IMG/VR virus record: IMGVR_UViG_3300020042_002196
Location: 1-34,585 of that record
From: a virus
Taxonomy: Duplodnaviria > Caudoviricetes
Reading direction: 5' to 3' (one strand)
Length of the DNA stretch: 34,585 bases
Below the pieces are notes generated by a model. The model worked only from the letters and a program-made list of their open reading frames with translations. It made no database searches and was not told the origin of the DNA. Positions 9,304-23,633 of the stretch are shown here, piece by piece. The position numbers were made by a program, and so were the translations under genes. Within the stretch, counting starts at the first letter, position 1, and each line of letters opens with the position of its first letter.

Positions 9304-11490
9304 ATGGCATACACACAAACCCCAGGAGCAACTGGGAGTCTTGCATCTGGAGGTGAATACGATAATGTAGATACTGCTGGTTCGGTAAGTTATTCTAATC
9401 TTTCTGCTGGATCTGCAGCTGCTTCAGCTCTTAGTGCTGCGGCTGCTTTAGCTTCTCAAACTGCTGCTGCCGCAAGTGCCACAAGTGCTTCTAATAGTGC
9501 TACAAGTGCTACTGCCAGTGCTTCAACTGCAACTACCCAAGCATCTAATGCTTCTACATCAGCAACTAACGCGGCAACAAGTGCTAGCAGCGCATCAGCA
9601 TCTGCAGCTACTGCAACTACGCAAGCATCTAATGCTTCTGCTAGTGCGTCAGCGGCATCAACCTCTGCAACTAATGCGGCATCAAGTGCATCAGCAGCAT
9701 CAACATCTGCGTCTAATGCTTCTTCAAGTGCTTCAGCGGCTTCTAGCTCAGCAACGTCTGCAAGTAACTCTGCTACAACAGCAACTACACAAGCAACTAG
9801 TGCAACTAATAGCGCAACAGCGGCAGGAACTTCTGCTACAAATGCGGCTAACAGTGCTACTTCTGCTAACACGTCTGCTACTAATGCTTCTGCAAGTGCA
9901 TCAGCTGCAAGCACATCTGCCTCAGCTGCTTCTACAAGTGAAACTAATGCGGCTACATCTGCTTCAACTGCAACAACTCAAGCGGGTATAGCTACTACAC
10001 AAGCTACAAATGCGTCTACTTCAGCCTCGTCTGCTAGTGCATCTGCATCTACCGCAACAACTCAAGCATCTAATGCTTCTACAAGCGCATCTAATGCAGC
10101 TACTAGTGCAACAAATGCAGCTAATAGCGCAACACTAGCGGCTAGTTATACACCAAGTCAAACAGGTAATTCTGGTAAGTTTTTAACTACTAACGGTACA
10201 GCAACCTCTTGGGCAAGTATAGTTGGAGCTTTAAGCTATCAAGGTAGTTGGAATGCATCAACTAACTCACCAACACTCACTTCTAGTGTAGGTTCTAATG
10301 GATACTATTATGTAGTCTCTGTGTCAGGTTCAACTAACTTAGATGGCATTACTGATTGGGTAATTGGTGACTGGGTAATATTTAACGGTGCAACTTGGCA
10401 AAAGATTGACCAGACTAACTTAGTTACATCAGTAGCTGGTCGTACAGGTGCTATCACTTTAGCTAATACTGATATTAGCGGCCTTGGTACAATGTCTACT
10501 CAAGCAGCTAGCAGTGTAGCTATTACTGGTGGTTCAATTACAGGCATAACTGACTTAGCCGTAACTGATGGTGGTACAGGAGCTTCTACAGCTCAAGGCG
10601 CTATTAATACATTAGCTGGAGCTGTTACGAGTGGAAGCTACTTAAGAGGCAACGGCACTAATGTGGTAATGAATACCATACAAACAGCTGATGTACCAAC
10701 ACTTAACCAAAATACAACTGGTAGTGCTGCAACATTAACAACGGGTCGTACTGTTGGGATTACTGGTGATATAACTTACACAAGCCCTTCTTTTGATGGT
10801 TCGGCTAACGTAACTGCAGCTAGTACTTTAGCAACAGTAAATACTAACGTAGGTTCTTTTACTAATGCAAACGTTACAGTTAACGCTAAAGGTTTAGTTA
10901 CAGCTGCTTCTAATGGAACTAGTGCAGTAACTTCTGTTACTGGAACTTCTCCAGTAGTTTCTAGTGGTGGTACAACTCCAGCAATTAGTTTAGCTACAGA
11001 CTATGGTGACACATTAAACCCATACGCTTCTAAAACAGCTAACTATATTCTTGCGGCACCTAATGGAGCATCAGGAGCACCTACGTTTAGAGCTATAGTT
11101 GCAGCAGATATACCAACATTAAATCAAAACACAACGGGTACTGCCGCAAACATTACAGGATCTAGTAATAGTACATTAACTACATTAAGCTCTTTAAGTT
11201 TGCCATATGGCCAATTGTCTGGTACTGTTCCTACATGGAATCAAAATACTACAGGCACAGCCGCTAACGTAACTGGTATTGTAGCAATTGCTAATGGTGG
11301 GACTAATGGAACAACTACTCCTACAGCTGGAGCCGTTGCTTATGGAACTGGAACTGCTTATAGTTTTACCAGCGCAGGTACCTCAGGTCAAGTATTAACT
11401 TCTGATGGCTCATCTATCCCCACTTGGACAACTATAGCAGCAAGTGATCCAGCAGGTACAGCTGTTGCAATGGCAATTGCCCTCGGTTAA
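9304..11490 (+). CDS. Long tail fibre with Ser/Ala/Thr coiled-coil shaft (728 aa)
   Basis: About 250 aa of TATTQASNASTSA-type repeats, then QTGNSGKFLTTNG, a YQGSWNAS...GDWVIFNG..WQKID domain, VTSVAGRTG, three PT(L/W)NQNTTG repeats and a C-terminal AVAMAIALG. Confidence 0.88.
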   Translation: MAYTQTPGATGSLASGGEYDNVDTAGSVSYSNLSAGSAAASALSAAAALASQTAAAASATSASNSATSATASASTATTQASNASTSATNAATSASSASASAATATTQASNASASASAASTSATNAASSASAASTSASNASSSASAASSSATSASNSATTATTQATSATNSATAAGTSATNAANSATSANTSATNASASASAASTSASAASTSETNAATSASTATTQAGIATTQATNASTSASSASASASTATTQASNASTSASNAATSATNAANSATLAASYTPSQTGNSGKFLTTNGTATSWASIVGALSYQGSWNASTNSPTLTSSVGSNGYYYVVSVSGSTNLDGITDWVIGDWVIFNGATWQKIDQTNLVTSVAGRTGAITLANTDISGLGTMSTQAASSVAITGGSITGITDLAVTDGGTGASTAQGAINTLAGAVTSGSYLRGNGTNVVMNTIQTADVPTLNQNTTGSAATLTTGRTVGITGDITYTSPSFDGSANVTAASTLATVNTNVGSFTNANVTVNAKGLVTAASNGTSAVTSVTGTSPVVSSGGTTPAISLATDYGDTLNPYASKTANYILAAPNGASGAPTFRAIVAADIPTLNQNTTGTAANITGSSNSTLTTLSSLSLPYGQLSGTVPTWNQNTTGTAANVTGIVAIANGGTNGTTTPTAGAVAYGTGTAYSFTSAGTSGQVLTSDGSSIPTWTTIAASDPAGTAVAMAIALG
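9410..10145 (+). repeat. Low-complexity degenerate coding repeat (Ala/Ser/Thr)
   Basis: Recurrent ac(t/a)caagcatctaatgcttct-like units. Explains the overlapping spurious ORFs. Confidence 0.9.
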
Positions 11491-11503
11491 ATAAGGAAAA
11501 TAA

Positions 11504-11830
11504 ATGGCAAATACATTTACATCATACGCCAACAAGTCAGTAGGTACCTCAGCGGCATCTGTACTAACTGTGGGGGCATCAACACAAACAACGGTTATTG
11601 GCCTGTCATGCGCCAATATTATTTCTTCTCCTGTAACAGTAGATGCTTACTTTACACGTTCTGCTGTAGACTACTACATTGTTAAAAATGCCACAGTACC
11701 TGTAGGAGGTACATTGGTAGCAGTAGGTGGAGATCAAAAATTAGTATTGATTACAGGTGACGTTTTAAAAGTAGTATCTTCAGCTGCTTCATCGATTGAT
11801 GTAGTAGCCAGTGTATTGAATATAACCTAA
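11504..11830 (+). CDS. Small beta-sandwich fibre-associated protein, putative branching adaptor (108 aa)
   Basis: AAGGA SD, alternating beta-strand pattern (VPVGGTLV...KLVL..GDVLKV), directly after the fibre ending AMAIALG. Role is inferred. Confidence 0.7.
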   Translation: MANTFTSYANKSVGTSAASVLTVGASTQTTVIGLSCANIISSPVTVDAYFTRSAVDYYIVKNATVPVGGTLVAVGGDQKLVLITGDVLKVVSSAASSIDVVASVLNIT

Positions 11831-11840
11831 GGAGATTATA

Positions 11841-12935
11841 ATGTCTTATTTAGGAAATACTTTTGATAGTCAATCTTTTGTTTCTCAAACAGATTACTTC
11901 AGTGGTAATGCTTCAACTACTGCTTTCACATTATCCAGAACTGTAGCATCATCTACCCAGATTCAGGTGACTATTGAGAATGTACCACAGAATCCTAGTT
12001 CAGCGTACACTGTATCAGGAAACACTATTACGTTTACCAGTGCGCCTCCTACAGGTACCAACAATATATACGTCTATTATTTGTCTACACTTGTAAGTAA
12101 CGTTCCTTTGTATGTTGCTGGTTCAACTGGTCAAATACAATACAACAATGCTGGTACATTAGCTGCTTCGTCTAATCTTTCTTTTGATGGAAGTACACTT
12201 GCAGTTACTGGCCCAACCACCATCTTAAAAAATGGCGGCACAGGAGCTACTGCTGGTTTAATGCTTAATGGGGGTGGAGCATCTACAACTTTTAACATAG
12301 ACTTTGGAACTCCAGTTAGCAATAGACTCTGGATGCGGCAAGCATACTCTGATGGTGCGGGTACTATAAAGTTTCAGTATTCGTCTGACGGCACAATGGC
12401 ATCACCTATTGATGTTCTTACCGTAAATTGGGGCACGGGCATTGCTGTAACTGGACTTACTGACATTTCTGCGGCAACATCAGGACAGATTAAATTCCCC
12501 GCAACTCAAAACGCATCATCTAATGCAAACACGCTAGATGATTATGAGGAGGGGACTTGGACACCTGCAATGACGCAAAGCGGAGCAACATTTACTTATA
12601 GCTACCAAACTGGTCGATACACAAAAATAGGGAATGTTGTAACAATTATTGCAACATTAGGTTGGAGTGCTAAATCTGGTGGATCGGGCAATGTAGGATA
12701 TTCTGGATTGCCTTTTCCATCATTAAATGTTTCGGGTACATATCAGATGATTACCTGCGGAGAGTTTTCGGGATTTACTTTGCCTACTGGAGCTACCACA
12801 CTGGACGGAGAAATTTTAACCAACGCAACAACAGGCACATTCTATGGGTCTGGAAGCGCCGTTTCTCCAGCGGCTATAACAACTCTTGCTAGTGCTGGGC
12901 TACTTTTCTTGCAATGTACATATCTTTCAAATTAA
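11841..12935 (+). CDS. Fibre/receptor-binding protein 1 (364 aa)
   Basis: MSYLGN start, FSGNAST.AFT...APPTGTNNI domain, GQIQYNNAG linker and a C-terminal LDDYEEGTWTP...YTKIGNVV...GLPF head domain. Confidence 0.85.
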   Translation: MSYLGNTFDSQSFVSQTDYFSGNASTTAFTLSRTVASSTQIQVTIENVPQNPSSAYTVSGNTITFTSAPPTGTNNIYVYYLSTLVSNVPLYVAGSTGQIQYNNAGTLAASSNLSFDGSTLAVTGPTTILKNGGTGATAGLMLNGGGASTTFNIDFGTPVSNRLWMRQAYSDGAGTIKFQYSSDGTMASPIDVLTVNWGTGIAVTGLTDISAATSGQIKFPATQNASSNANTLDDYEEGTWTPAMTQSGATFTYSYQTGRYTKIGNVVTIIATLGWSAKSGGSGNVGYSGLPFPSLNVSGTYQMITCGEFSGFTLPTGATTLDGEILTNATTGTFYGSGSAVSPAAITTLASAGLLFLQCTYLSN

Positions 12936-12982
12936 CCCATAGTCAAACCAGAATAGTTTGATCAGACATAAAGGAACACATC

Positions 12983-13237
12983 ATGTCAATCACCAAATCA
13001 ACCATTGTTGACCAAATCACCGTGACCGAGAACGGCATTGTTCTATACCGTGAAGCCACTCGCATCATGGAAGACGGCAATCAACTCAGCGAAACCTATC
13101 ACCGTTCAAGTCTCACGCCGGGACAAGACTTGACGGGCGTACCCGCCAATGTCGTTGCAATCTGCAATGTGGCTTGGACTGCTGAAGTCATTGCGGCTTA
13201 TCAAACACAATTAGCTGAACAATCAACTCAACCTTAA
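12983..13237 (+). CDS. Putative fibre partner/assembly chaperone (84 aa)
   Basis: AAGGA SD. DQITVTENG..LYREAT...YHR...W motif, which I recall following DDYEEG-type fibres. Shares the C-rich codon usage of the RBP1 tip. Confidence 0.75.
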   Translation: MSITKSTIVDQITVTENGIVLYREATRIMEDGNQLSETYHRSSLTPGQDLTGVPANVVAICNVAWTAEVIAAYQTQLAEQSTQP

Positions 13238-13247
13238 TTAATTAAAT

Positions 13248-13385
13248 ATGGAATCGTTTACTTTATCAACCAACCTAATCAACGCCATTATGCAATATAT
13301 GGGTTCACAACCCTATGTGCAGGTAAGTCAATTAATCTCTGCTATTCAAAAAGAAATTCAAGATCAACAGAAGCCAAGTGAATAA
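13248..13385 (+). CDS. Small helical hypothetical protein (45 aa, MESFTLSTNLINAIMQYMGSQPYVQVSQLI...); not in the ORF track
   Basis: Hand translation; fills the gap. The L...PY..V..LI pattern is seen in small phage fibre-region proteins. Confidence 0.7.
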   Translation: MESFTLSTNLINAIMQYMGSQPYVQVSQLISAIQKEIQDQQKPSE

Positions 13386-13400
13386 CTACTAGGACATCCC

Positions 13401-13589
13401 ATGTTTACAAGTATCTTAAAATCAAAAACAGTGTGGTATGCTATATTGTTAGCAATTCTATCTGTGTTACAGGGTAGTTTAAATATTTTTAATTTAACAC
13501 CTTTATTTCAAATGTATGTAGGCATGGGCATTTCCGTTGGTATTGTCATCCTAAGAGTATTAACCACACAACCTTTATTGGAGAAATAA
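13401..13589 (+). CDS. Small two-TM membrane protein, holin-like (62 aa)
   Basis: KSKTVW followed by two hydrophobic segments and RVLTTQP. AGGA SD. TAATG overlap with the next gene. Confidence 0.7.
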   Translation: MFTSILKSKTVWYAILLAILSVLQGSLNIFNLTPLFQMYVGMGISVGIVILRVLTTQPLLEK

Positions 13590-15139
13590 TGCCTATCAGC
13601 ACAATATCATCAAATAGTTTAACTCCTTCAAGCGACATCTCAATCAATGGGGTATCTGTAGGGCTTGGAGCAGGTAATATAGCTACTAACACTGCTGTAG
13701 GAACAAGCACTTTAGCGGTAAATACTACAGGTAGTCAAAACGTTGCTGTAGGGTATCAAGCAGGTTATAGCAATACTACTGCTATCCGTAATACTGCTGT
13801 GGGGAATCAGGCACTTATAGCTAACACCGCCAGCTACAACACCGCAACTGGCTTTCGTTCTTTATATACAAATACTACAGGAAGCCAAAACACGGGTCAT
13901 GGTGTTTGGTCTTTGAATTTAAACACAACAGGTTCAAACAATACCGCAATCGGTATGTACGCAATGAATGGAAGTACGACTGGTTCAAACAATACCGCTG
14001 TTGGTCTTTCTGCGCTAGAAAGCAACACCACAGCAGGAAACAACACTGCTGTAGGTTATCAGGCGGGGTATAGCAATACGACCACTATAGGCATTACAGC
14101 AATTGGAACGGAGTCGCTGTATTCAAACACAACAGGCTATAACACTGCTGTAGGGTATAGGGCTTTATACACCAATACGACTGGCTCAGACAATGCGGCC
14201 TTTGGTGGAAGTGGCACTGTAGCCGCCGCATTGCGTTTTAACACCACAGGCTCATACAACACAGCCGTGGGTACTGGATCGCTCCAAGCCAACACCGTAG
14301 GCACAAACAACACTGCTGTAGGTTATCAGGCGGGCTACACAAATTCTACTTCTTCATACAACGTATTTATTGGTCAACGTGCTGGTTATACATTTAACTA
14401 CCCAGATAATACTTTTAACACTTTTGTTGGCGCACAAAGTGGATATTCCGCAACAACAGGAAGTGGAAACACATTTATAGGCGCTAGCGCTTCGGGGTAT
14501 GGTGCTGGCTACTCTATAACTACAGGTGCTAAAAACACCATCCTTGGCGGCTACACAGGCAACACAGCCTCCTTAGACATTCGCACAGCAAGCAACTATG
14601 TTGTACTATCTGATGGGGATGGGAGGATAGTATTTGTCGGCAATGGCTCCGCAACTAATAACAGATTTGTTCAATTCGATGGAACTTATTTTTTACCCGC
14701 CACTGATAATGTTATAGCGTTAGGAGCGCCATCATATAGATGGAGCGTTGTTTATGCTGCAACTGGGACAATTAATATATCAGATGCCAACGCAAAGCAA
14801 GACATTGCAAACCTTGATGATGCCGAAAAGCGTGTGGCAGTTGCAATCAAAGCACTCATCAAAAAATACCGATTCAAAGATGCCGTGGCTGAAAAAGGTG
14901 ATGTCGCCCGGATTCACATTGGCGCTATTGCTCAAGAAGTGCAAGCCGCTTTTGTTGCGGAGGGATTAGACGCTACTCGTTATGCGCTGTTCTGTTCTGA
15001 TACTTGGTATGAAGTTGACGGTAAAGCCAAAGGAAAAGACCTTGTGCAGTACACCGCAGAAACCGAGGGCGCAGTTGAAGTAACACGACTTGGCTTGCGC
15101 TACGATGAACTTTTGGCATTTGTAATTGCCGCAATGTAA
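13589..15139 (+). CDS. Fibre/RBP 2 with NTAVG beta-roll repeats and a C-terminal peptidase S74-type intramolecular chaperone (516 aa)
   Basis: More than 12 N(T)A(V/I)G repeats of ~17-18 aa (YadA-head-like). SDANAK...HIGAIAQEV...LRYDELL chaperone motifs. Confidence 0.88.
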   Translation: MPISTISSNSLTPSSDISINGVSVGLGAGNIATNTAVGTSTLAVNTTGSQNVAVGYQAGYSNTTAIRNTAVGNQALIANTASYNTATGFRSLYTNTTGSQNTGHGVWSLNLNTTGSNNTAIGMYAMNGSTTGSNNTAVGLSALESNTTAGNNTAVGYQAGYSNTTTIGITAIGTESLYSNTTGYNTAVGYRALYTNTTGSDNAAFGGSGTVAAALRFNTTGSYNTAVGTGSLQANTVGTNNTAVGYQAGYTNSTSSYNVFIGQRAGYTFNYPDNTFNTFVGAQSGYSATTGSGNTFIGASASGYGAGYSITTGAKNTILGGYTGNTASLDIRTASNYVVLSDGDGRIVFVGNGSATNNRFVQFDGTYFLPATDNVIALGAPSYRWSVVYAATGTINISDANAKQDIANLDDAEKRVAVAIKALIKKYRFKDAVAEKGDVARIHIGAIAQEVQAAFVAEGLDATRYALFCSDTWYEVDGKAKGKDLVQYTAETEGAVEVTRLGLRYDELLAFVIAAM

Positions 15140-15150
15140 GGAGCATAAAC

Positions 15151-15363
15151 ATGAATGAAATCACCGCAGAACAAATCGCCCAGCACTACAGTGCCGCAAT
15201 GGACTCAGTAAACCTCATCAATGCTGACAAGCCAGAAATGATGAGTGATGCTGATTGGGCAGATTGCTTGACCCGCAACAAAGAACATTTAAAAATTATG
15301 TTAACAAAAGACTTCTGGACAACTGAAGACTTAACACCGCTACAACAAGCGGCAGGAGACTAA
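15151..15363 (+). CDS. Small helical partner of RBP2 (70 aa)
   Basis: AAGGAG SD. IAQHYSAAMDSVNLI...RNKEHLKIM...W motif. Same codon style as the RBP2 tip. Confidence 0.75.
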   Translation: MNEITAEQIAQHYSAAMDSVNLINADKPEMMSDADWADCLTRNKEHLKIMLTKDFWTTEDLTPLQQAAGD

Positions 15364-15365
15364 CA

Positions 15366-17033
15366 ATGTCATATGTAGGTAATACACCACAATATGCTGC
15401 TTTCATTACTGATACTTTTAACGGTAATAACAGTACAGTAGCATTCACAATGTCAGTAGCCCCGGCTAACACAGCCTCTATTATTGTTGCAGTAACAGGT
15501 GTCCTTCAAGACCCCTCTACCTACTCAGTAAACGGTCTCACATTAACATTCTCCCAAGCACCTCCTACTGGTACAGGCAATATATCAGTACGTTACTTGG
15601 GTATTCCTGCTTCAGGTATCACTAACACAGCATATAGAACTATTACTGAGTTTACAGCTACATCAGGACAAACTACATTTGCAACCCCATCATACACTGT
15701 TGGTTATATTAATGTATATATCAACGGTGTAAGGATGGCATCGAGTGACTTTACGGCTACATCAGGAACTACTGTAGTTATGGCATCGCCAACTTTTTTA
15801 AATGACATTGTTGTTACAGAAAGCTTTTATGTAAGCTCTGTACTTAATGCGTTGTCTACTAATGGGGGTGTAATCAATGGTAGTTTAACTACTGCTGGTA
15901 CTGCAACGTTTAATAGCACTGTTACTCATTCAGCTGGTACCGCTAATGGTGTGGCTTATTTAAACGGCAGTAAGGCGCTGACCACGGGCAGTGCGTTGGT
16001 GTTTGATGGTAGCAATTTGGGATTGGGTGTTACGCCTAGTGCTTGGAGTATTGGCACGGCAATACAAGTAAAACGAGCGTCTTTCTACACATACGATAAT
16101 AGCGGCGTTGAAATAAGTCAAAACGCAGCAGTTATTAGCGGCGCATGGCAACGCATCGGCGCTGATTTTGCGACCAAATATGCTCAAGATACTGGAAAGC
16201 ATTATTGGTTTACAGCGCCAAGTAGCACCGCTGGCAGTGCTATTACTTGGACTCAAGCAATGACCCTTGATGCAAGCGGTAACTTGGGGTTGGGCACTAC
16301 TGCCCCGCAAAACAAACTACAAGTAAAAACAACAGTAAGGCCGCAGCTTTCTGTAAGTTATGACGGAACTACAGGTTTGTATCTTGAAGATTCAACTGCG
16401 TCTGTAGGTAAAAGTTGGAAAATTGCTACTTCTACGGCGGTGGCAAGCGCATTAGAGTTTTATCAATCAACTGCAACAAGCGGCGTTCCTGTTTGGGCGG
16501 CAACTGCGGCAATGACCCTTGATGCAAGCGGTAACTTGCTGGTGGGGACTACGACTAAAAATAACGATGGAAAAATATCAATTTCTGCAAGTTCAGCTTT
16601 AAATCAAGGCATGACCATCAGAGAAACAAGCACAACAAACGACATATATTACATACTATTTCAAAACTCAACTGGCGGTACTGCTGGAAGAATTGAGCAC
16701 ACAGGGGCAACTACTGTTAATTACACATCCGGTTCTGATGTACGTCTAAAAACAAACATTGTTGATGCTGGTTCTGCAAAAGAAAAAATTGAATCCATTA
16801 AAATTCGTGAGTTTGATTGGATAACTGGGGAGCATCAAAAATTTGGTGTTATTGCTCAAGAATTAATTGAAGTTGCACCAGAAGCTGTTTGTGCAGCAAG
16901 AACAGAAAATGATTATTGGGGCGTTGATTATTCAAAACTTGTTCCATCACTCATTAAGTATGTCCAAGAACAACAAGCCCTCATCACCCAATTACAAACC
17001 GATGTAGCCGCACTTAAAGGAGTACAAACATGA
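15366..17033 (+). CDS. Fibre/RBP 3 with two N-terminal beta domains and a C-terminal peptidase S74 chaperone (555 aa)
   Basis: MSYVGN start, FNGNNSTVAFT domain, FTATSGQTTF...YINGV domain, AMTLDASGNL twice, and SDVRLKTNI...GVIAQEL...VDYSKL plus coiled coil. Confidence 0.9.
   Translation: MSYVGNTPQYAAFITDTFNGNNSTVAFTMSVAPANTASIIVAVTGVLQDPSTYSVNGLTLTFSQAPPTGTGNISVRYLGIPASGITNTAYRTITEFTATSGQTTFATPSYTVGYINVYINGVRMASSDFTATSGTTVVMASPTFLNDIVVTESFYVSSVLNALSTNGGVINGSLTTAGTATFNSTVTHSAGTANGVAYLNGSKALTTGSALVFDGSNLGLGVTPSAWSIGTAIQVKRASFYTYDNSGVEISQNAAVISGAWQRIGADFATKYAQDTGKHYWFTAPSSTAGSAITWTQAMTLDASGNLGLGTTAPQNKLQVKTTVRPQLSVSYDGTTGLYLEDSTASVGKSWKIATSTAVASALEFYQSTATSGVPVWAATAAMTLDASGNLLVGTTTKNNDGKISISASSALNQGMTIRETSTTNDIYYILFQNSTGGTAGRIEHTGATTVNYTSGSDVRLKTNIVDAGSAKEKIESIKIREFDWITGEHQKFGVIAQELIEVAPEAVCAARTENDYWGVDYSKLVPSLIKYVQEQQALITQLQTDVAALKGVQT
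16257..16538 (+). repeat. Exact 30-bp direct repeat pair GCAATGACCCTTGATGCAAGCGGTAACTTG (16257-16286, 16509-16538)
   Basis: Read directly from the sequence. The offset is 252 bp (84 codons, in frame). Confidence 0.95.
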
Positions 17034-18112
17034 GTAACGCAAAATCATTATCAGAGTTAGGTGGATCGTATGGCACTGGAGGAATGTCTAGTTTTAAGAA
17101 TCGTATTATTAATGGTGATATGAGGATTGATCAGCGTAATGCTGGGGCGAGTGTTACTGGAAACGATGGAGTATATACACTGGACAGAACTTTTGTCATT
17201 GGAACTCAATCTTCAAAATTTACAGTGCAGCAAAATGCTGGGTCTGTTACGCCCCCTAATGGGTTCAGAAACTACTTAGGGGTCACTTCATCTTCTGCTT
17301 ATTCATTGCTGTCGAGTGATTACTTTACACTGTGCCAGCGTATTGAAGGATTTAACACAGCAGACATGATGTTTGGCACTGCCACTGCCGCAACATTTAC
17401 GTTGTCTTTTTGGGTTAGGTCTTCACTCACTGGAACATTTGGCGGCCTATTAGCAAACCATCCAGCAGACCGTTGCTATTTGTATTCATACACCATCAAT
17501 GCCGCTAATACTTGGGAAAAGAAAACAATTACAGTAGCAGGCGATACAACAGGAACTTGGGCAACCAATAACACCCGTGGTTTGCAGGTTATGTTTTGTC
17601 TTGGTGCAGGATCAAGTTATGTTGGCGCTACTGGCTCATGGAGTTCCACATACGCTCTTGGCCCAACAGGTCAAACAAATGTCCTTGGCACATCTGGAGC
17701 CACCTTCTACATCACAGGCGTACAGCTAGAAAAAGGCGCAACAGCAACATCGTTTGACTACCGCCCGTATGGGACTGAGGTGTTTTTGTGTCAGCGGTAC
17801 TTTGCAAAGATAAATGCTTCTACAACATACACGGGGTTTGGATCAGGGTTATTTGCTAGTACCGGCTCCGCACAAATATTTTTAAAATATCCAACAACAA
17901 TGCGGTCAGCACCAACAATAAGTCAAAGTAACTGCGCTTTAAATACCACAGATGCTGCTTTTACCGTTACAAGTTTAAGTGGAACAAATGCAGGAACAGA
18001 TACTGCACTACAGTCATTTAGTATTGCGTCAGGTGGTACTCAATATAGGGCAGTTGTGTTGACCGCAAATAATAATACAGCGGCATATGTTGATTTTTCT
18101 TCGGAGTTATAA
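17030..18112 (+). CDS. Fibre/RBP 4, carbohydrate-binding-like jelly-roll domain plus variable C-terminus (360 aa)
   Basis: FKNRIING...DQRNAGASVT, TLSFWVRSS, ITGVQLEKG..AT.FDYR.YG.E..LCQRY and MRSAPT. ATGA overlap with the previous gene. Confidence 0.85.
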   Translation: MSNAKSLSELGGSYGTGGMSSFKNRIINGDMRIDQRNAGASVTGNDGVYTLDRTFVIGTQSSKFTVQQNAGSVTPPNGFRNYLGVTSSSAYSLLSSDYFTLCQRIEGFNTADMMFGTATAATFTLSFWVRSSLTGTFGGLLANHPADRCYLYSYTINAANTWEKKTITVAGDTTGTWATNNTRGLQVMFCLGAGSSYVGATGSWSSTYALGPTGQTNVLGTSGATFYITGVQLEKGATATSFDYRPYGTEVFLCQRYFAKINASTTYTGFGSGLFASTGSAQIFLKYPTTMRSAPTISQSNCALNTTDAAFTVTSLSGTNAGTDTALQSFSIASGGTQYRAVVLTANNNTAAYVDFSSEL

Positions 18113-18280
18113 ATGTATCAAAAACATCAAAACAATGCTTTAATGGGTGAAGCAAAATCGGTTAGGCGTTTGTCTGACGGTGCATCTATCCCATTTGACC
18201 CCGACAACACAGACTACCAAGCATATCTGAAATGGCTGGAAGATGGTAACACCCCATTACCAGCAGATGAAGGAGCATAA
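18113..18280 (+). CDS. Small fibre chaperone-like protein (55 aa, ...IPFDPDNTDYQAYLKWLEDGNTPLPADEGA); not in the ORF track
   Basis: Hand translation with a GGAG SD upstream. Clear paralogue of 19386..19568. Confidence 0.9.
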   Translation: MYQKHQNNALMGEAKSVRRLSDGASIPFDPDNTDYQAYLKWLEDGNTPLPADEGA

Positions 18281-18282
18281 AC

Positions 18283-19374
18283 ATGGCACTTACACAAGTT
18301 GATTCTGGACTATTAAATAGTTCAGCACAATATACTGGATTTAAGAACCGCATCATCAATGGTGCGATGGTTATAGACCAGAGGAATGCGGGGGCGAGTG
18401 TGACCCAAAACGATCAAGGACTTTATACGCTTGATAGATGGTCTGCATATGGAACTGTTAATTCTAAATTTACAATTCAACAAAATGGTGGGTCAGTAAC
18501 TCGACCTGCAGGTTTTAAAAATTACCTGGGGTGTACATCGACCTCTGCGTACACTGTAACCGCAACTGACCTTAATATAATTCAGCAAGATATTGAAGGA
18601 TATAACATTGCCGATTTAGGATGGGGAACTGCTGATGCTAAGACTGTAACTCTTTCATTTTGGGTTCGTAGTTCTTTAACTGGAACATTTGGCGGCTCTA
18701 TTACTGGTGGTAACACTAGAAACTATCCTTGGTCTTACACCATATCTTCCGCAAATACTTGGGAATTTAAAACAATAATTATTGCTGGCGATACATCTGG
18801 AACTTGGGGTTCTACTAACGGAACTGGAATTATTGTAAATTGGAGTCTAGGTACTGGTTCAAGCTATAGCAACACTAGTGGCTCATGGACAGCATCTGCT
18901 TCATATTCTGTTCCAAGCGCAGTCAGCGTAGTCGGCACAAACGGAGCCACCTTCTACATCACAGGTGTTCAGTTGGAAAAAGGCTCAACAGCAACATCGT
19001 TTGACTACCGTGACTATGGGCGTGAGTTGACTTTGTGTGAAAGGTATTGTCTTCAATTCACCTCAACAACATATGGAAATCCATTAGGTGGTATAGGGAT
19101 TTTCTTAAATGGTTCTACAAGTTCGCTTTTTGGTGGACGGTTTCGTATGAGAAGCAATCCAACAGCAACGTACACTGGCGCTGGGCCTTATATGGCTGAT
19201 GCAAATGGTAGCTTAAGTACTGTGTCATCTGTATCAGTAGTTGCAACAGGAGCAAACAATTTTGTTGAATGGCAATTTAATTTTCCAGTAATGGGTGGTG
19301 GTGCGTATGGAGGTAAATCTTGTTATTTCATATCCAACGTAGGCAGTTACCTTCGTCTTGATGCAGAATTATAA
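18283..19374 (+). CDS. Fibre/RBP 5, paralogue of RBP4 (363 aa)
   Basis: Same motif series as RBP4, with a different N-terminal peptide (MALTQVDSGLL) and a divergent C-terminal ~105 aa. Confidence 0.85.
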   Translation: MALTQVDSGLLNSSAQYTGFKNRIINGAMVIDQRNAGASVTQNDQGLYTLDRWSAYGTVNSKFTIQQNGGSVTRPAGFKNYLGCTSTSAYTVTATDLNIIQQDIEGYNIADLGWGTADAKTVTLSFWVRSSLTGTFGGSITGGNTRNYPWSYTISSANTWEFKTIIIAGDTSGTWGSTNGTGIIVNWSLGTGSSYSNTSGSWTASASYSVPSAVSVVGTNGATFYITGVQLEKGSTATSFDYRDYGRELTLCERYCLQFTSTTYGNPLGGIGIFLNGSTSSLFGGRFRMRSNPTATYTGAGPYMADANGSLSTVSSVSVVATGANNFVEWQFNFPVMGGGAYGGKSCYFISNVGSYLRLDAEL

Positions 19375-19385
19375 GGAATTTAACT

Positions 19386-19568
19386 ATGTATAAAAAATTT
19401 GCTGATAAAAATAGTATAGTAACTGGACTTCCGGAACCAGTTAATGGAATAATACGAATTATTGATAATGCAGGAATTCCCTTTGACCCCGCTAACACCG
19501 ACTACCAAGCATATCTGAAATGGCTGTCCGAGGGCAACACGCCTGAACCAGCAGATGAAGGAGCATAA
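19386..19568 (+). CDS. Small fibre chaperone-like protein (60 aa)
   Basis: AAGGA SD. IPFDPANTDYQAYLKWL.EGNTP motif. Paralogue of 18113..18280. Confidence 0.88.
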   Translation: MYKKFADKNSIVTGLPEPVNGIIRIIDNAGIPFDPANTDYQAYLKWLSEGNTPEPADEGA

Positions 19569-21830: not shown

Positions 21831-23633
21831 ATGAATTTACCACCATCAACTGGTATACCTGAGTTAGACACTTACCTATACAATTTATATTTAAATATTG
21901 TAGATTCTTCTAATTCACAAGGATATTCTTCAGACCCTAATACAGGCATTATTACAGATTCAGATGGTAACCTGGTAGGATACTTATATCAATATCTGCA
22001 TATCAAATATGCAATTGACAATACTGGCACAGGTATGTCTGATACCCCTACAGGTCAATACTATTATGGTTTAAACAATAGTACATCCTCAACTGAATCA
22101 ACTAATCCAGCAGACTATACTTGGTATCTAGTAAATTATGGTATTGGTTTTGGTACAACTTTGTTTTTGTATTATCAGATTCTTGGTGGTAGACGTATTA
22201 AATGGGATGTTAACACTGCCCCTATTGACTATCGTTGGTTACTTGCCCCATCACTAGCACTCGATTTAGATATTCTTGTACCACCTCAAACAATAAGTAG
22301 TTCTGAATTATTAGATGCTGCTGTTACAGAACTTAAAATAGCAGCCTCAGCTGTGTCTGCCTCTAAACTTAATGTAGCAGCAATTAGTAACGTAACAGGT
22401 AATTTAGTAACCAATTCAGTTGGTCCAACCCAAATACAACTTGCAGCAGTAACTGCGGGAAAGCTTAGTGTAGCTGCTATTGAATCTGCAACAGGTAATT
22501 TAGTAGCTAACTCAGTAGGTACTACTCAAATATCTGATAATGCAATTACAAGTGCAAAAGTAACTGCCAATGCAATTGTTGCAGGAAAGATTGCAGCTAA
22601 TGCTGTGACAGCAACTGAGATTGCGGCTAATTCGATAACTGCTGATAAGATAACTACTAATGCAGTTACTGCGGATAAAATTTTAGCTAATGCAGTTACT
22701 TCTGAAAAGATAACAGCTAATGCAATTACAGCGAGTAAAATTGATGCTAATGCGGTTACTGCTGTAAAGATAGAAGCAGGAGCTGTTACTTCTGATAAGA
22801 TTTTTGCAGGAGCTGTTACTTCAGATAAAATAACAGTAGGCACTTTATCTGCTATTAATGCAAATATGGGTACTATTACTGCTGGAGATTTATCTATCGG
22901 TAGTAGTCCTACTATTTCTGGCACCACTATGACTGGCACTGGCAGTCATTTATATTCTAATGGTAATTTTGCATTTGGTAATTCAACCACCAACATGGTG
23001 TTTAATGGAACTAATGTATTTTTAAATGGATTTGTTAGTGGATCTAATTCACAATTTGTATTCCAAATTATAAAATCATATTTTGATAAATTATATAATT
23101 TTAATGTAAGCAAACCAACATACATAGTATATGGGACATCGGGAGATACTTATTTTATAATAAATGACACCAATGTTGTATCATTTGGTATGCAATATCA
23201 ATTTGGATTAATGCCTGTAACGGGCGCAGTCGAAATGGTTGCCGGAACAAATTATCAAATTAGTGTTGTTGGTACAACAAACTTTACCGCATATGGGGCG
23301 GCATCAAATACAGTCGGAACATTTTTTACTGCAACCAGTGCTGGAACTGGAACAGGCCAAGTTTACGATTACAGCACATTATTAATGGCAGTAAATAGAG
23401 ATTGGAGAACGCCTTGTTCTTTAAGTAATGGATATAGAAATGCAAGTATGAGCACATCATTTACCGATACACGATATCTATCACCGCGAACGTATGGATA
23501 TGACATTGTTCTCAGATATATAAGTTTATCATATATAAATTCGAGCGGAACTTTTATTTCTCCTGCACCGGGTTATTTAGAAAACCTAAATTTGCAGGGG
23601 GCCATAAATTTTTCGTATGCGGCAAATATTTAA
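21831..23633 (+). CDS. Tail needle/fibre with decapeptide (ANAVTADKI) repeats (600 aa)
   Basis: YLHIKYA...STNPADYTW module, about 10 tandem 10-aa repeats, LSAINANMGTITAG motif and a compositionally distinct C-terminus. Confidence 0.75.
   Translation: MNLPPSTGIPELDTYLYNLYLNIVDSSNSQGYSSDPNTGIITDSDGNLVGYLYQYLHIKYAIDNTGTGMSDTPTGQYYYGLNNSTSSTESTNPADYTWYLVNYGIGFGTTLFLYYQILGGRRIKWDVNTAPIDYRWLLAPSLALDLDILVPPQTISSSELLDAAVTELKIAASAVSASKLNVAAISNVTGNLVTNSVGPTQIQLAAVTAGKLSVAAIESATGNLVANSVGTTQISDNAITSAKVTANAIVAGKIAANAVTATEIAANSITADKITTNAVTADKILANAVTSEKITANAITASKIDANAVTAVKIEAGAVTSDKIFAGAVTSDKITVGTLSAINANMGTITAGDLSIGSSPTISGTTMTGTGSHLYSNGNFAFGNSTTNMVFNGTNVFLNGFVSGSNSQFVFQIIKSYFDKLYNFNVSKPTYIVYGTSGDTYFIINDTNVVSFGMQYQFGLMPVTGAVEMVAGTNYQISVVGTTNFTAYGAASNTVGTFFTATSAGTGTGQVYDYSTLLMAVNRDWRTPCSLSNGYRNASMSTSFTDTRYLSPRTYGYDIVLRYISLSYINSSGTFISPAPGYLENLNLQGAINFSYAANI
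22535..22840 (+). repeat. 30-nt period coding repeat (10-aa unit)
   Basis: gctaatgc(a/g/t)gt..act..gataa(g/a)at units. GCAGGAGCTGTTACTTC repeats exactly at 30-nt spacing (22776, 22806). Confidence 0.9.

Follow-up and report, generated by a model that had tools for sequence, protein, structure and literature searches.

Introduction

Several phages are known to branch their receptor-binding proteins (RBPs). In Klebsiella phages KP32, K11 and KP34 and in coliphage G7C, an anchorless secondary RBP docks by a short conserved N-terminal peptide on a T4gp10-like domain (PMC6872550), and in Klebsiella dual-RBP phages deletion of either the branching domain or the peptide abolishes incorporation (PMC13352976). 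The adaptor gp37 of K1-5, K1E and SP6 binds two tailspikes by N-terminal peptides of 7 and 11 residues (PMC6872550). Larger trees have also been described: tandem N-terminal XD domains of a trimeric RBP act as platforms for further trimers, with XD faces that differ in partner (PMC8825819, PMC10253068); RaK2 gp528 has five predicted XD domains, and a multi-tier tree has been modelled for that phage (PMC10253068); and primary, secondary and tertiary fibres of phiKp24 were modelled from N-terminal length and T4gp10-like folds (bioRxiv 2022.03.15.484430). Here we compare with these systems a fibre gene block at positions 9304-19568 of the virus record IMGVR_UViG_3300020042_002196. The window that we analysed is the entire contig, 34,585 nucleotides (nt) long; because terminase, SU10-type portal, major capsid and adaptor genes are all encoded in it (Pfam/PHROG), we read it as an SU10-like, short-tailed podophage.

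A first-pass annotation, made from the letters alone, had proposed that this block encodes a branched fibre tree. Our results suggest that its products, a stalk, a jelly-roll hub and five tips, probably join through short peptides at their ends to form a three-tier branched receptor-binding fibre. The system is real and widespread, largely as that annotation proposed, while its physical docking is something that we infer.

Results

A tagged stalk, a hub and five receptor-binding proteins

All genes of the block lie on the plus strand, in an order that is observed directly. The stalk fibre (728 amino acids (aa), 9304..11490), which follows the SU10 adaptor gene, has an Ala/Ser/Thr-rich N-terminal half and a Gly/Thr-rich shaft, matches PHROG tail-fibre families (the best a 'tail' family, E 2.6e-9) and ends in a hydrophobic tag of about 12 aa, AVAMAIALG before the stop codon (11452..11490). 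It is followed by the hub (11504..11830), an all-beta protein of 108 aa that AlphaFold2 (AF2) models as a single jelly-roll beta-sandwich. RBP1 (364 aa, 11841..12935) consists of the N-terminal peptide MSYLGN, which we call hub-type (MxYxG), a domain A of a first sub-type (aa 16-83, 11886..12089) and a tip; over aa 1-101 it matches the tail-fibre family PHROG 18673. RBP2 (516 aa, 13589..15139) starts with the a-type peptide MPISTI, continues into a repeat shaft and a Pfam Peptidase_S74 domain (aa 398-459), and matches tailspikes in the PDB (best E 1.5e-14). RBP3 (555 aa, 15366..17033) carries the hub-type peptide MSYVGN, a domain A of a second sub-type (aa 14-80, 15405..15605), a domain B (aa 90-156, 15633..15833), a shaft and an S74 chaperone. 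The remaining two, RBP4 (360 aa, 17030..18112; b-type peptide MSNAKSLS) and RBP5 (363 aa, 18283..19374; a-type peptide MALTQV), have tips of the phrog_4492 type. Given their S74 intramolecular chaperones, RBP2 is likely a trimer and RBP3 presumably one too.

Open reading frame (ORF) calls and translations placed every ORF of the first-pass annotation where it had been reported, including the tag, the hub and the five RBPs, and the N-termini of RBP2, RBP4 and RBP5 read as it gave them. A purine-rich, Shine-Dalgarno-like stretch precedes the start codons of the fibre, the hub and all five RBP genes, which supports the assigned N-termini. Searches of RBP1 and RBP4 against PDB sequences gave no match, and no depolymerase beta-helix was identified in the tip proteins of this block.

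In the proposed assembly, the stalk would be anchored at the tail and its C-terminal tag capped by the hub, which in turn would receive RBP1 and RBP3 by their MxYxG N-termini. Homology to T4 gp10 and CBA120 TSP4 suggests that every A or B domain would trimerise into a platform for one further trimer, which would bind by its N-terminal peptide, or plug. The likely pairs are the RBP1 domain A with RBP2 (MPISTI class), the RBP3 domain B with RBP4 (MSNAKSL class) and the RBP3 domain A with RBP5 (MALTQV class). For the first two tiers, tag to hub and hub to MxYxG, the proposal is based on gene linkage; for the last tier, socket to peptide, homology to tested systems and co-occurrence point the same way. 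The idea that one fibre carries up to five specificities is unproven.

The stalk tag and the hub occur together

A scan with the 108-aa hub returned 80 IMG/VR loci and 37 GenBank phage records; with three further scans and seven GenBank regions, the collection comprises 327 loci besides the window. The linkage of tag and hub is observed directly and in both directions, in line with the pairing predicted earlier. The tag pattern ends the upstream ORF in 256 of 281 non-redundant hub pairs, compared to 26 of 3498 other ORFs. About half of these 26 control matches are plausible tags (second stalks, or stalk-hub pairs with an inserted ORF) and the rest have a baseplate-type ending. Of the 25 hub pairs without the pattern, several involve distantly related second hub paralogues, and in six the upstream ORF ends in a G-variant. 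In loci fetched later, the tag lies upstream of the hub in 107/126. For the reverse direction we scanned for the tag and its stop codon without conditioning on the hub: 120 matches were reduced to 63 by removing 56 with less than 400 nt downstream and one redundant, and a hub gene follows the stop directly in 56 of the 63. An MxYxG-type peptide starts the gene next after the hub in 240/274. The proteins upstream of the hub vary in length between 68 and 1013 aa, and their N-termini are diverse.

The hub family is large, with 869 representatives at 50% identity, and one form of the tag is estimated to occur in about 4,600 stored IMG/VR stretches. Among cultured phages, hub carriers infect the major aquatic bacteria Pelagibacter, Puniceispirillum, Roseobacter, Synechococcus and Methylophilales, and also Rhizobium and Yersinia ruckeri. 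The AF2 model of the hub is a confident single jelly roll (predicted local distance difference test (pLDDT) 97.6). The hub has no Pfam, PHROG or PDB-sequence match, and Foldseek returned nothing at E 0.001; structural comparison (VIA) gave tied generic jelly rolls (nucleoplasmin-like cores, KHP40 cement, HFTV1 turret) at Z 9.5-10, with a top Z of 10.0, and its ESM Atlas neighbours are unnamed viral clusters. A Rhizobium-phage hub used as query against bacterial and archaeal genomes gave no match. A complex prediction with three hubs and three 34-aa stalk ends scored 0.12 against a mark of 0.32, was run without controls and counts neither way.

The tag and hub also occur in other arrangements. 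Melnitz (L084:14456-18966), L257, L276 and L281 have two tag-hub pairs, in which the second tagged protein starts with a hub-type peptide and has two A domains, a combination that suggests a recursive branch extender. In two close relatives of the window phage (L014:1084-2415, L016:3-2042), a second stalk gene with a tag lies ahead of the portal gene and distant from the hub; the window has none. The hub domain is fused N-terminally to long tip-like proteins in P0010, P0012, P0014, P0029, P0105, P0134 and P0147, and we set aside a stalk-tag-hub fusion (P0117) as evidence, since it is a single record and perhaps a read-through artefact. In one hub sub-family (L207, L211, L216, L228, L229, L239) the next gene encodes one giant, socket-free protein of 2,400-3,300 aa, whose N-terminal peptide is a variant. 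In L411, L429, L434 and L441, more hub-like jelly-roll paralogues follow A-domain genes and precede sets of ~300-aa tips, so there may be more connector types than those described here.

Domains A and B have an XD-like fold

As had been noted before, RBP1 and RBP3 both start with MSY(L/V)GN and share domain A (52% identity over residues 1-81); the remaining BLAST pieces between them are weak, at E 0.057 or worse. Domain B, which matches Pfam DUF4183 at aa 85-140 (E 2e-7), is likewise present in RBP3 only, alongside its domain A. Both domains sit N-terminally, behind a peptide of 13-15 aa, and the stalk of the window has neither; some relatives have A or B within the stalk (L080, CRP-9). The first-pass annotation, which listed the two as separate domains, needs a correction here: profile iteration and a tree indicate that they are paralogues of one fold rather than unrelated, with domain B a supported clade spanning distant phages. 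The third profile iteration fused the A and B profiles, so we used the iteration-2 models.

The A/B profile matches solved phage proteins, namely 9k4a (E 2.6e-13, tandem copies), 8i4m, 6w4q and 7rej. The match of profile A4 to 7rej aa 192-249 (E 4e-4) is weak by itself, because antibody light chains score almost as high. The AF2 model of RBP3 residues 1-158 (pLDDT 88.8) has CBA120 TSP4-N as its best Foldseek match (E 1.9e-4). Its domain B superposes on TSP4 (7rfv) 187-250 with Z 9.3 and a root-mean-square deviation (rmsd) of 1.4 Å over 64 aligned aa; the A+B model spans 7rej 185-335 with Z 8.6 and an rmsd of 11.3 Å, which is due to a different relative orientation of the domains. In TSP4, XD2 lies at ~188-250, XD2 and XD3 have the T4 gp10 fold, and binding of the partner trimer was mapped to them (Chao et al., PMC8825819). 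The XD-like fold of A and B is thus directly apparent in profiles and models, by which A and B are members of the T4 gp10-like XD2/XD3 branching fold family and candidate sockets, that of domain B being XD2-like. An internal A-like domain also lies in chain e of PDB 8i4m (residues 579-655), in the unresolved distal part of the fibre of cyanophage P-SCSP1u; a phage with a solved tail may therefore have an unnoticed branch site.

Peptide classes track socket domains

The first-pass annotation had called the peptides of RBP2 and RBP5 similar. Both are indeed a-type, and they fall into two sub-classes that differ by position: after the first A gene, the a-peptide has S at position 4 in 16/17 and I at position 6 in 17/17, while after an AB or AC gene it has LT at positions 3-4 in 17/17 and V at position 6 in 16/17, counts that come mostly from related freshwater loci. 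The layout of the window, an A gene followed by an AB gene, recurs in 16 other loci, whose stalks span 68-805 aa.

We compared domains and peptides across loci with at least 7 kilobases after the hub (121 of 326), which gave a discovery set of 98 after near-duplicates were removed; co-occurrence of peptide and domain is observed directly in this set. An a-peptide is present in 55 of 71 loci with A and in 1 of 27 without. For B and b the counts are 28/31 versus 14/67, or 40/44 versus 2/54 once a B-like A subgroup (A3) of T4-like loci is included post hoc, and for C and c, a third pair found in relatives, 18/19 versus 8/79. As background, 296 upstream control ORFs gave one match to the a pattern, one to b and 9 to c. 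With profiles and patterns frozen, we then used a blind set (159 new loci; 44 had sufficient length and, of these, 39 were non-redundant). The links held for B and b (15/21 versus 0/18, p 2e-6) and for C and c (8/9 versus 5/30, p 2e-4).

When both sets are pooled (137 non-redundant loci), the b-peptide occurs in 55/65 loci with a B-type domain and 2/72 without, and the a-peptide in 64/101 with A and 1/36 without. The two classes doubly dissociate: A-only loci have a in 25/52 and b in 2/52, and B-type-only loci have a in 0/16 and b in 13/16. The a-peptide thus seems to require domain A, whose presence does not suffice for it: some A sub-families precede other elements, among them additional hub-like paralogues. 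One B-type domain is accompanied by one b gene in 46/61, and in 57 of 58 cases a b gene follows the B-type gene at a distance of 1-6 ORFs. In an independent-pairs test run on the hub tree, all three classes point the right way and p falls below 0.05 for C only (6.7 pairs in the same direction versus 0.2 opposite, of 10; median p 0.016). The co-variation across genomes that the earlier annotation put forward as a check is therefore strong for B and less clean for A.

Tip families vary independently of plugs, and relatives have a third socket

The bodies of RBP4 and RBP5 are 56% identical over 291 aa behind different plugs, so the five tips represent at most four families. Across loci, 423 plug-bearing proteins sort into 125 families by their tips, and each of the largest combines with three or four plug classes. 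In the RBP4 tip family, for example, the plugs are of class b (18), class a (24), hub type (11) or class c (1), and 59 b-proteins are spread over 29 tip families. By these sequence comparisons, plugs are separable from tip bodies, and tips would therefore be swapped by recombination behind a fixed plug of 10-15 residues.

Domain C, absent from the window, is a C-terminal domain of ~50 aa with its own c-peptide class. It exists either as a free protein of 67-72 aa, whose plug is hub-type or a-type, or as a fusion C-terminal to A or B, and its profile matched nothing significant in the PDB. It precedes about three tip genes with an N-terminal class of their own in L002, L004, L014, L016, L061, L076, L150, L276, L281 and HMO-2011 (L083:12338-17599). 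Of 21 single-C loci, 15 have two or three c genes with the one domain, and 9 have exactly three. Three sites on one domain and a heterotrimer are alternatives for this arrangement. A heterotrimer is also possible in L418, L421, L455 and L462, where one B domain goes with up to three paralogous 200-aa b-type proteins and the hub-type peptide has no aromatic residue.

Other genes in and near the block

The block is flanked on one side by the adaptor gene and on the other by the putative nozzle gene, which encodes a virion structural protein of 513 aa. Interspersed with the RBP genes are small ORFs of 84, 45, 62, 70, 55 and 60 aa, all on the same strand, that are absent from the first-pass annotation. 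After RBP1 come the 84-aa ORF (12983..13237; phrog_6228, of unknown function), a candidate tip assembly factor, and the 45-aa and hydrophobic 62-aa ORFs (13248..13589). The 62-aa ORF (13401-13589), which has no Pfam or PHROG match, is perhaps a membrane protein unrelated to the fibre. A 70-aa ORF (15151..15363) follows RBP2. The 55-aa ORF after RBP4 (18113..18280) is a 58% identical paralogue of the 60-aa ORF after RBP5 (19386..19568; phrog_20370), and both are putative tip assembly factors. Outside the block, after the putative nozzle gene, a 600-aa tail-fibre-like protein (21831-23633) has pentapeptide-like repeats and PHROG tail-fibre matches and no tag, plug or socket.

Discussion

Points against the proposed branched fibre, and other explanations

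A number of observations weigh against the three-tier fibre. All of its docking contacts are deduced from sequence, and linked inheritance of adjacent genes can mimic co-occurrence. T7-type fibre anchors and neck proteins share the A/B fold, so the fold alone is no proof of a branching role. The peptide patterns were designed with the 98 discovery loci already in view, and joining the A3 subgroup to B was a post hoc step. In the blind set the A/a link is weak (9/30 versus 0/9, p 0.085, not significant), and two off-diagonal links appear, B with a (9/21 versus 0/18, p 0.002) and A with c (13/30 versus 0/9); the former is resolved by the pooled B-type-only loci and their complete lack of a-peptides. 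Independent pairs for B-type and b run 5.0 in the same direction versus 0.1 opposite, of 7, with a median p of 0.06 (not significant), and those for A and a, in the right direction, number 3 and are underpowered. Counts of A and a are often not 1:1 (among 40 two-A loci, two a-peptides occur in 12 and none, by pattern, in 15), and L421, L455 and L462 have one B and two or three b-type paralogues. Finally, Table 3 of the YerA41 virion proteomics has no detection mark for g040 and g041 and marks the following two MxYxG fibre proteins (PMC7354516); we equate g040 and g041 with the YerA41 tag protein and hub by gene order only, and the result is weakly unfavourable, given that a 104-aa protein is easily missed.

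A three-fold hub would most simply offer one axial site. RBP1 and RBP3 could then be alternatives on different fibres, or some paralogous tips could be heterotrimeric, so that the virion would be a mosaic and no fibre would have five tips. The single hub-type peptide in 30/119 single-hub loci fits this, as do the paralogous tip triplets after one C domain and sometimes after one B. Two hub-type genes per hub are nevertheless the mode (60 of 119 single-hub loci, and exactly four in 11 of 18 two-hub loci), which suggests a fixed two-site layout, and we regard the one-site hub as unlikely, with a modest chance of being right. The hub could instead act outside the virion, as a transient assembly chaperone for the hydrophobic C-terminus of the stalk, leaving only the XD-peptide joints to persist. 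Small genes after fibre genes often encode chaperones, as for T-even and lambda fibres, and the missing mark for the presumed YerA41 hub gene would agree. Against this, two S-TIM5 proteins, the tagged protein of 81 aa and the hub, are annotated in the GenBank record as virion structural, a label whose basis is unchecked; moreover, the shortest tagged proteins measure 68 aa, the hub domain is also fused to the N-terminus of long tip-like proteins, and a chaperone role leaves the conserved MxYxG start of the next gene unexplained. We consider a chaperone improbable.

Two further explanations concern the sockets, and we give each of them very little credence. If domain A were a T7-gp17-like anchor, RBP1 and RBP3 would attach to the adaptor or nozzle itself, without the hub as their socket. 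The domain A model does align with the T7 gp17 N-terminus (7boz; Z 6.5, rmsd 3.6 Å, 71 aa), and its Atlas neighbours partly carry PF03906, a family for which RBP1 and RBP3 give no match at E 0.01. Against an anchor role, the presence of domain A tracks a-peptide genes; T4-like myoviruses, which have baseplates, carry it too (Melnitz), and it is also found as three tandem copies and within stalks (L080). The match between peptides and domains could also reflect co-inheritance of adjacent genes without any docking code, as many loci are related and independent contrasts are few for A and B. This is hard to reconcile with identical peptide classes on 28-60 different tip families, and with links that hold across podo- and myoviruses, even where the B domain lies in the stalk upstream of the hub (CRP-9). 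Sister loci also lose domain and peptide jointly (L061 versus L002/L004; L015 versus L021), and off-diagonal pairs are flat in 118 pooled loci except for a weak negative A/b link (p 0.017). The branched, peptide-docked fibre thus stays our preferred reading.

It is tempting to speculate further that aquatic phages with unrelated tails share a portable, orthogonal and recursive connector grammar. The tag would lead to the hub and the hub to two MxYxG proteins; A1, A2 and B would each have their own peptide class; C would take three tips; and a tagged MxYxG protein would restart the cycle. We put this forward tentatively, as a possibility that falls somewhat short of being favoured. Should it be true, branching architecture could be read from the first and last dozen residues per gene. 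If this grammar is physical, it would account for the many consecutive unannotated 'hypothetical' genes that follow the tail fibre in these aquatic phages, and would reveal how receptor tips can be exchanged while assembly is left undisturbed. From sequence one could then predict how many host-binding tips there are and where they sit. The paradigm from Klebsiella phages, with its one branch, would likewise grow to include several connectors that are mutually specific and of use for protein assembly design.

Comparison with known branched systems

The first-pass annotation took short-peptide docking to be undescribed, which does not stand: the relevant passages of PMC6872550 describe it and those of PMC13352976 report a genetic test. 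In a search outside which most subscription papers lay, we did not find in print the tag-hub connector, coexisting peptide classes or C-domain triplets, nor any publication on the AIALG tail-fibre ending or on DUF4183 in phages. The portions of PMC10575957, PMC12796354 and PMC9023294 consulted contain nothing on a tag-hub connector, and the paper on phage 7-7-1 among them has none similar. The principle of a branching domain and a peptide is thus known, and the central tag-hub connector appears undescribed.

Domains A and B resemble CBA120 TSP1-4 (Ackermannviridae) and T4 gp10, matching XD2 and XD3 of TSP4 by profile and fold. The CBA120 tree, however, roots in the anchor domain of an XD-bearing chain, whereas here the root is a separate tagged stalk and a free-standing hub; and its partners dock by head or XD domains, compared to just 10-20 residues ahead of the tip body here. 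The phiKp24 model, in the parts available to us, does not describe a tag-hub connector or peptide classes. As a dedicated adaptor for two different RBPs that would bind short N-terminal peptides, the hub is reminiscent of K1-5 gp37, but gp37 is tail-anchored and has a T4gp10-like domain, unlike the 108-aa jelly roll, which has no such match and is tied to the stalk tag. No gp37-like chain was among the fold matches listed for the hub, and a relation is still possible.

RBP2, RBP4 and RBP5 resemble the secondary RBPs of KP32 and G7C in having no anchor and a short conserved N-terminal peptide. The system is not a member of that type, because its anchor chain carries no branching domain. KP32 and G7C have one branch and one peptide type per phage group, in contrast to at least three peptide classes in the single genome examined here (hub-type, a with two sub-types, and b, with c in relatives), in an arrangement of three putative tiers that recurs across unrelated aquatic phages.

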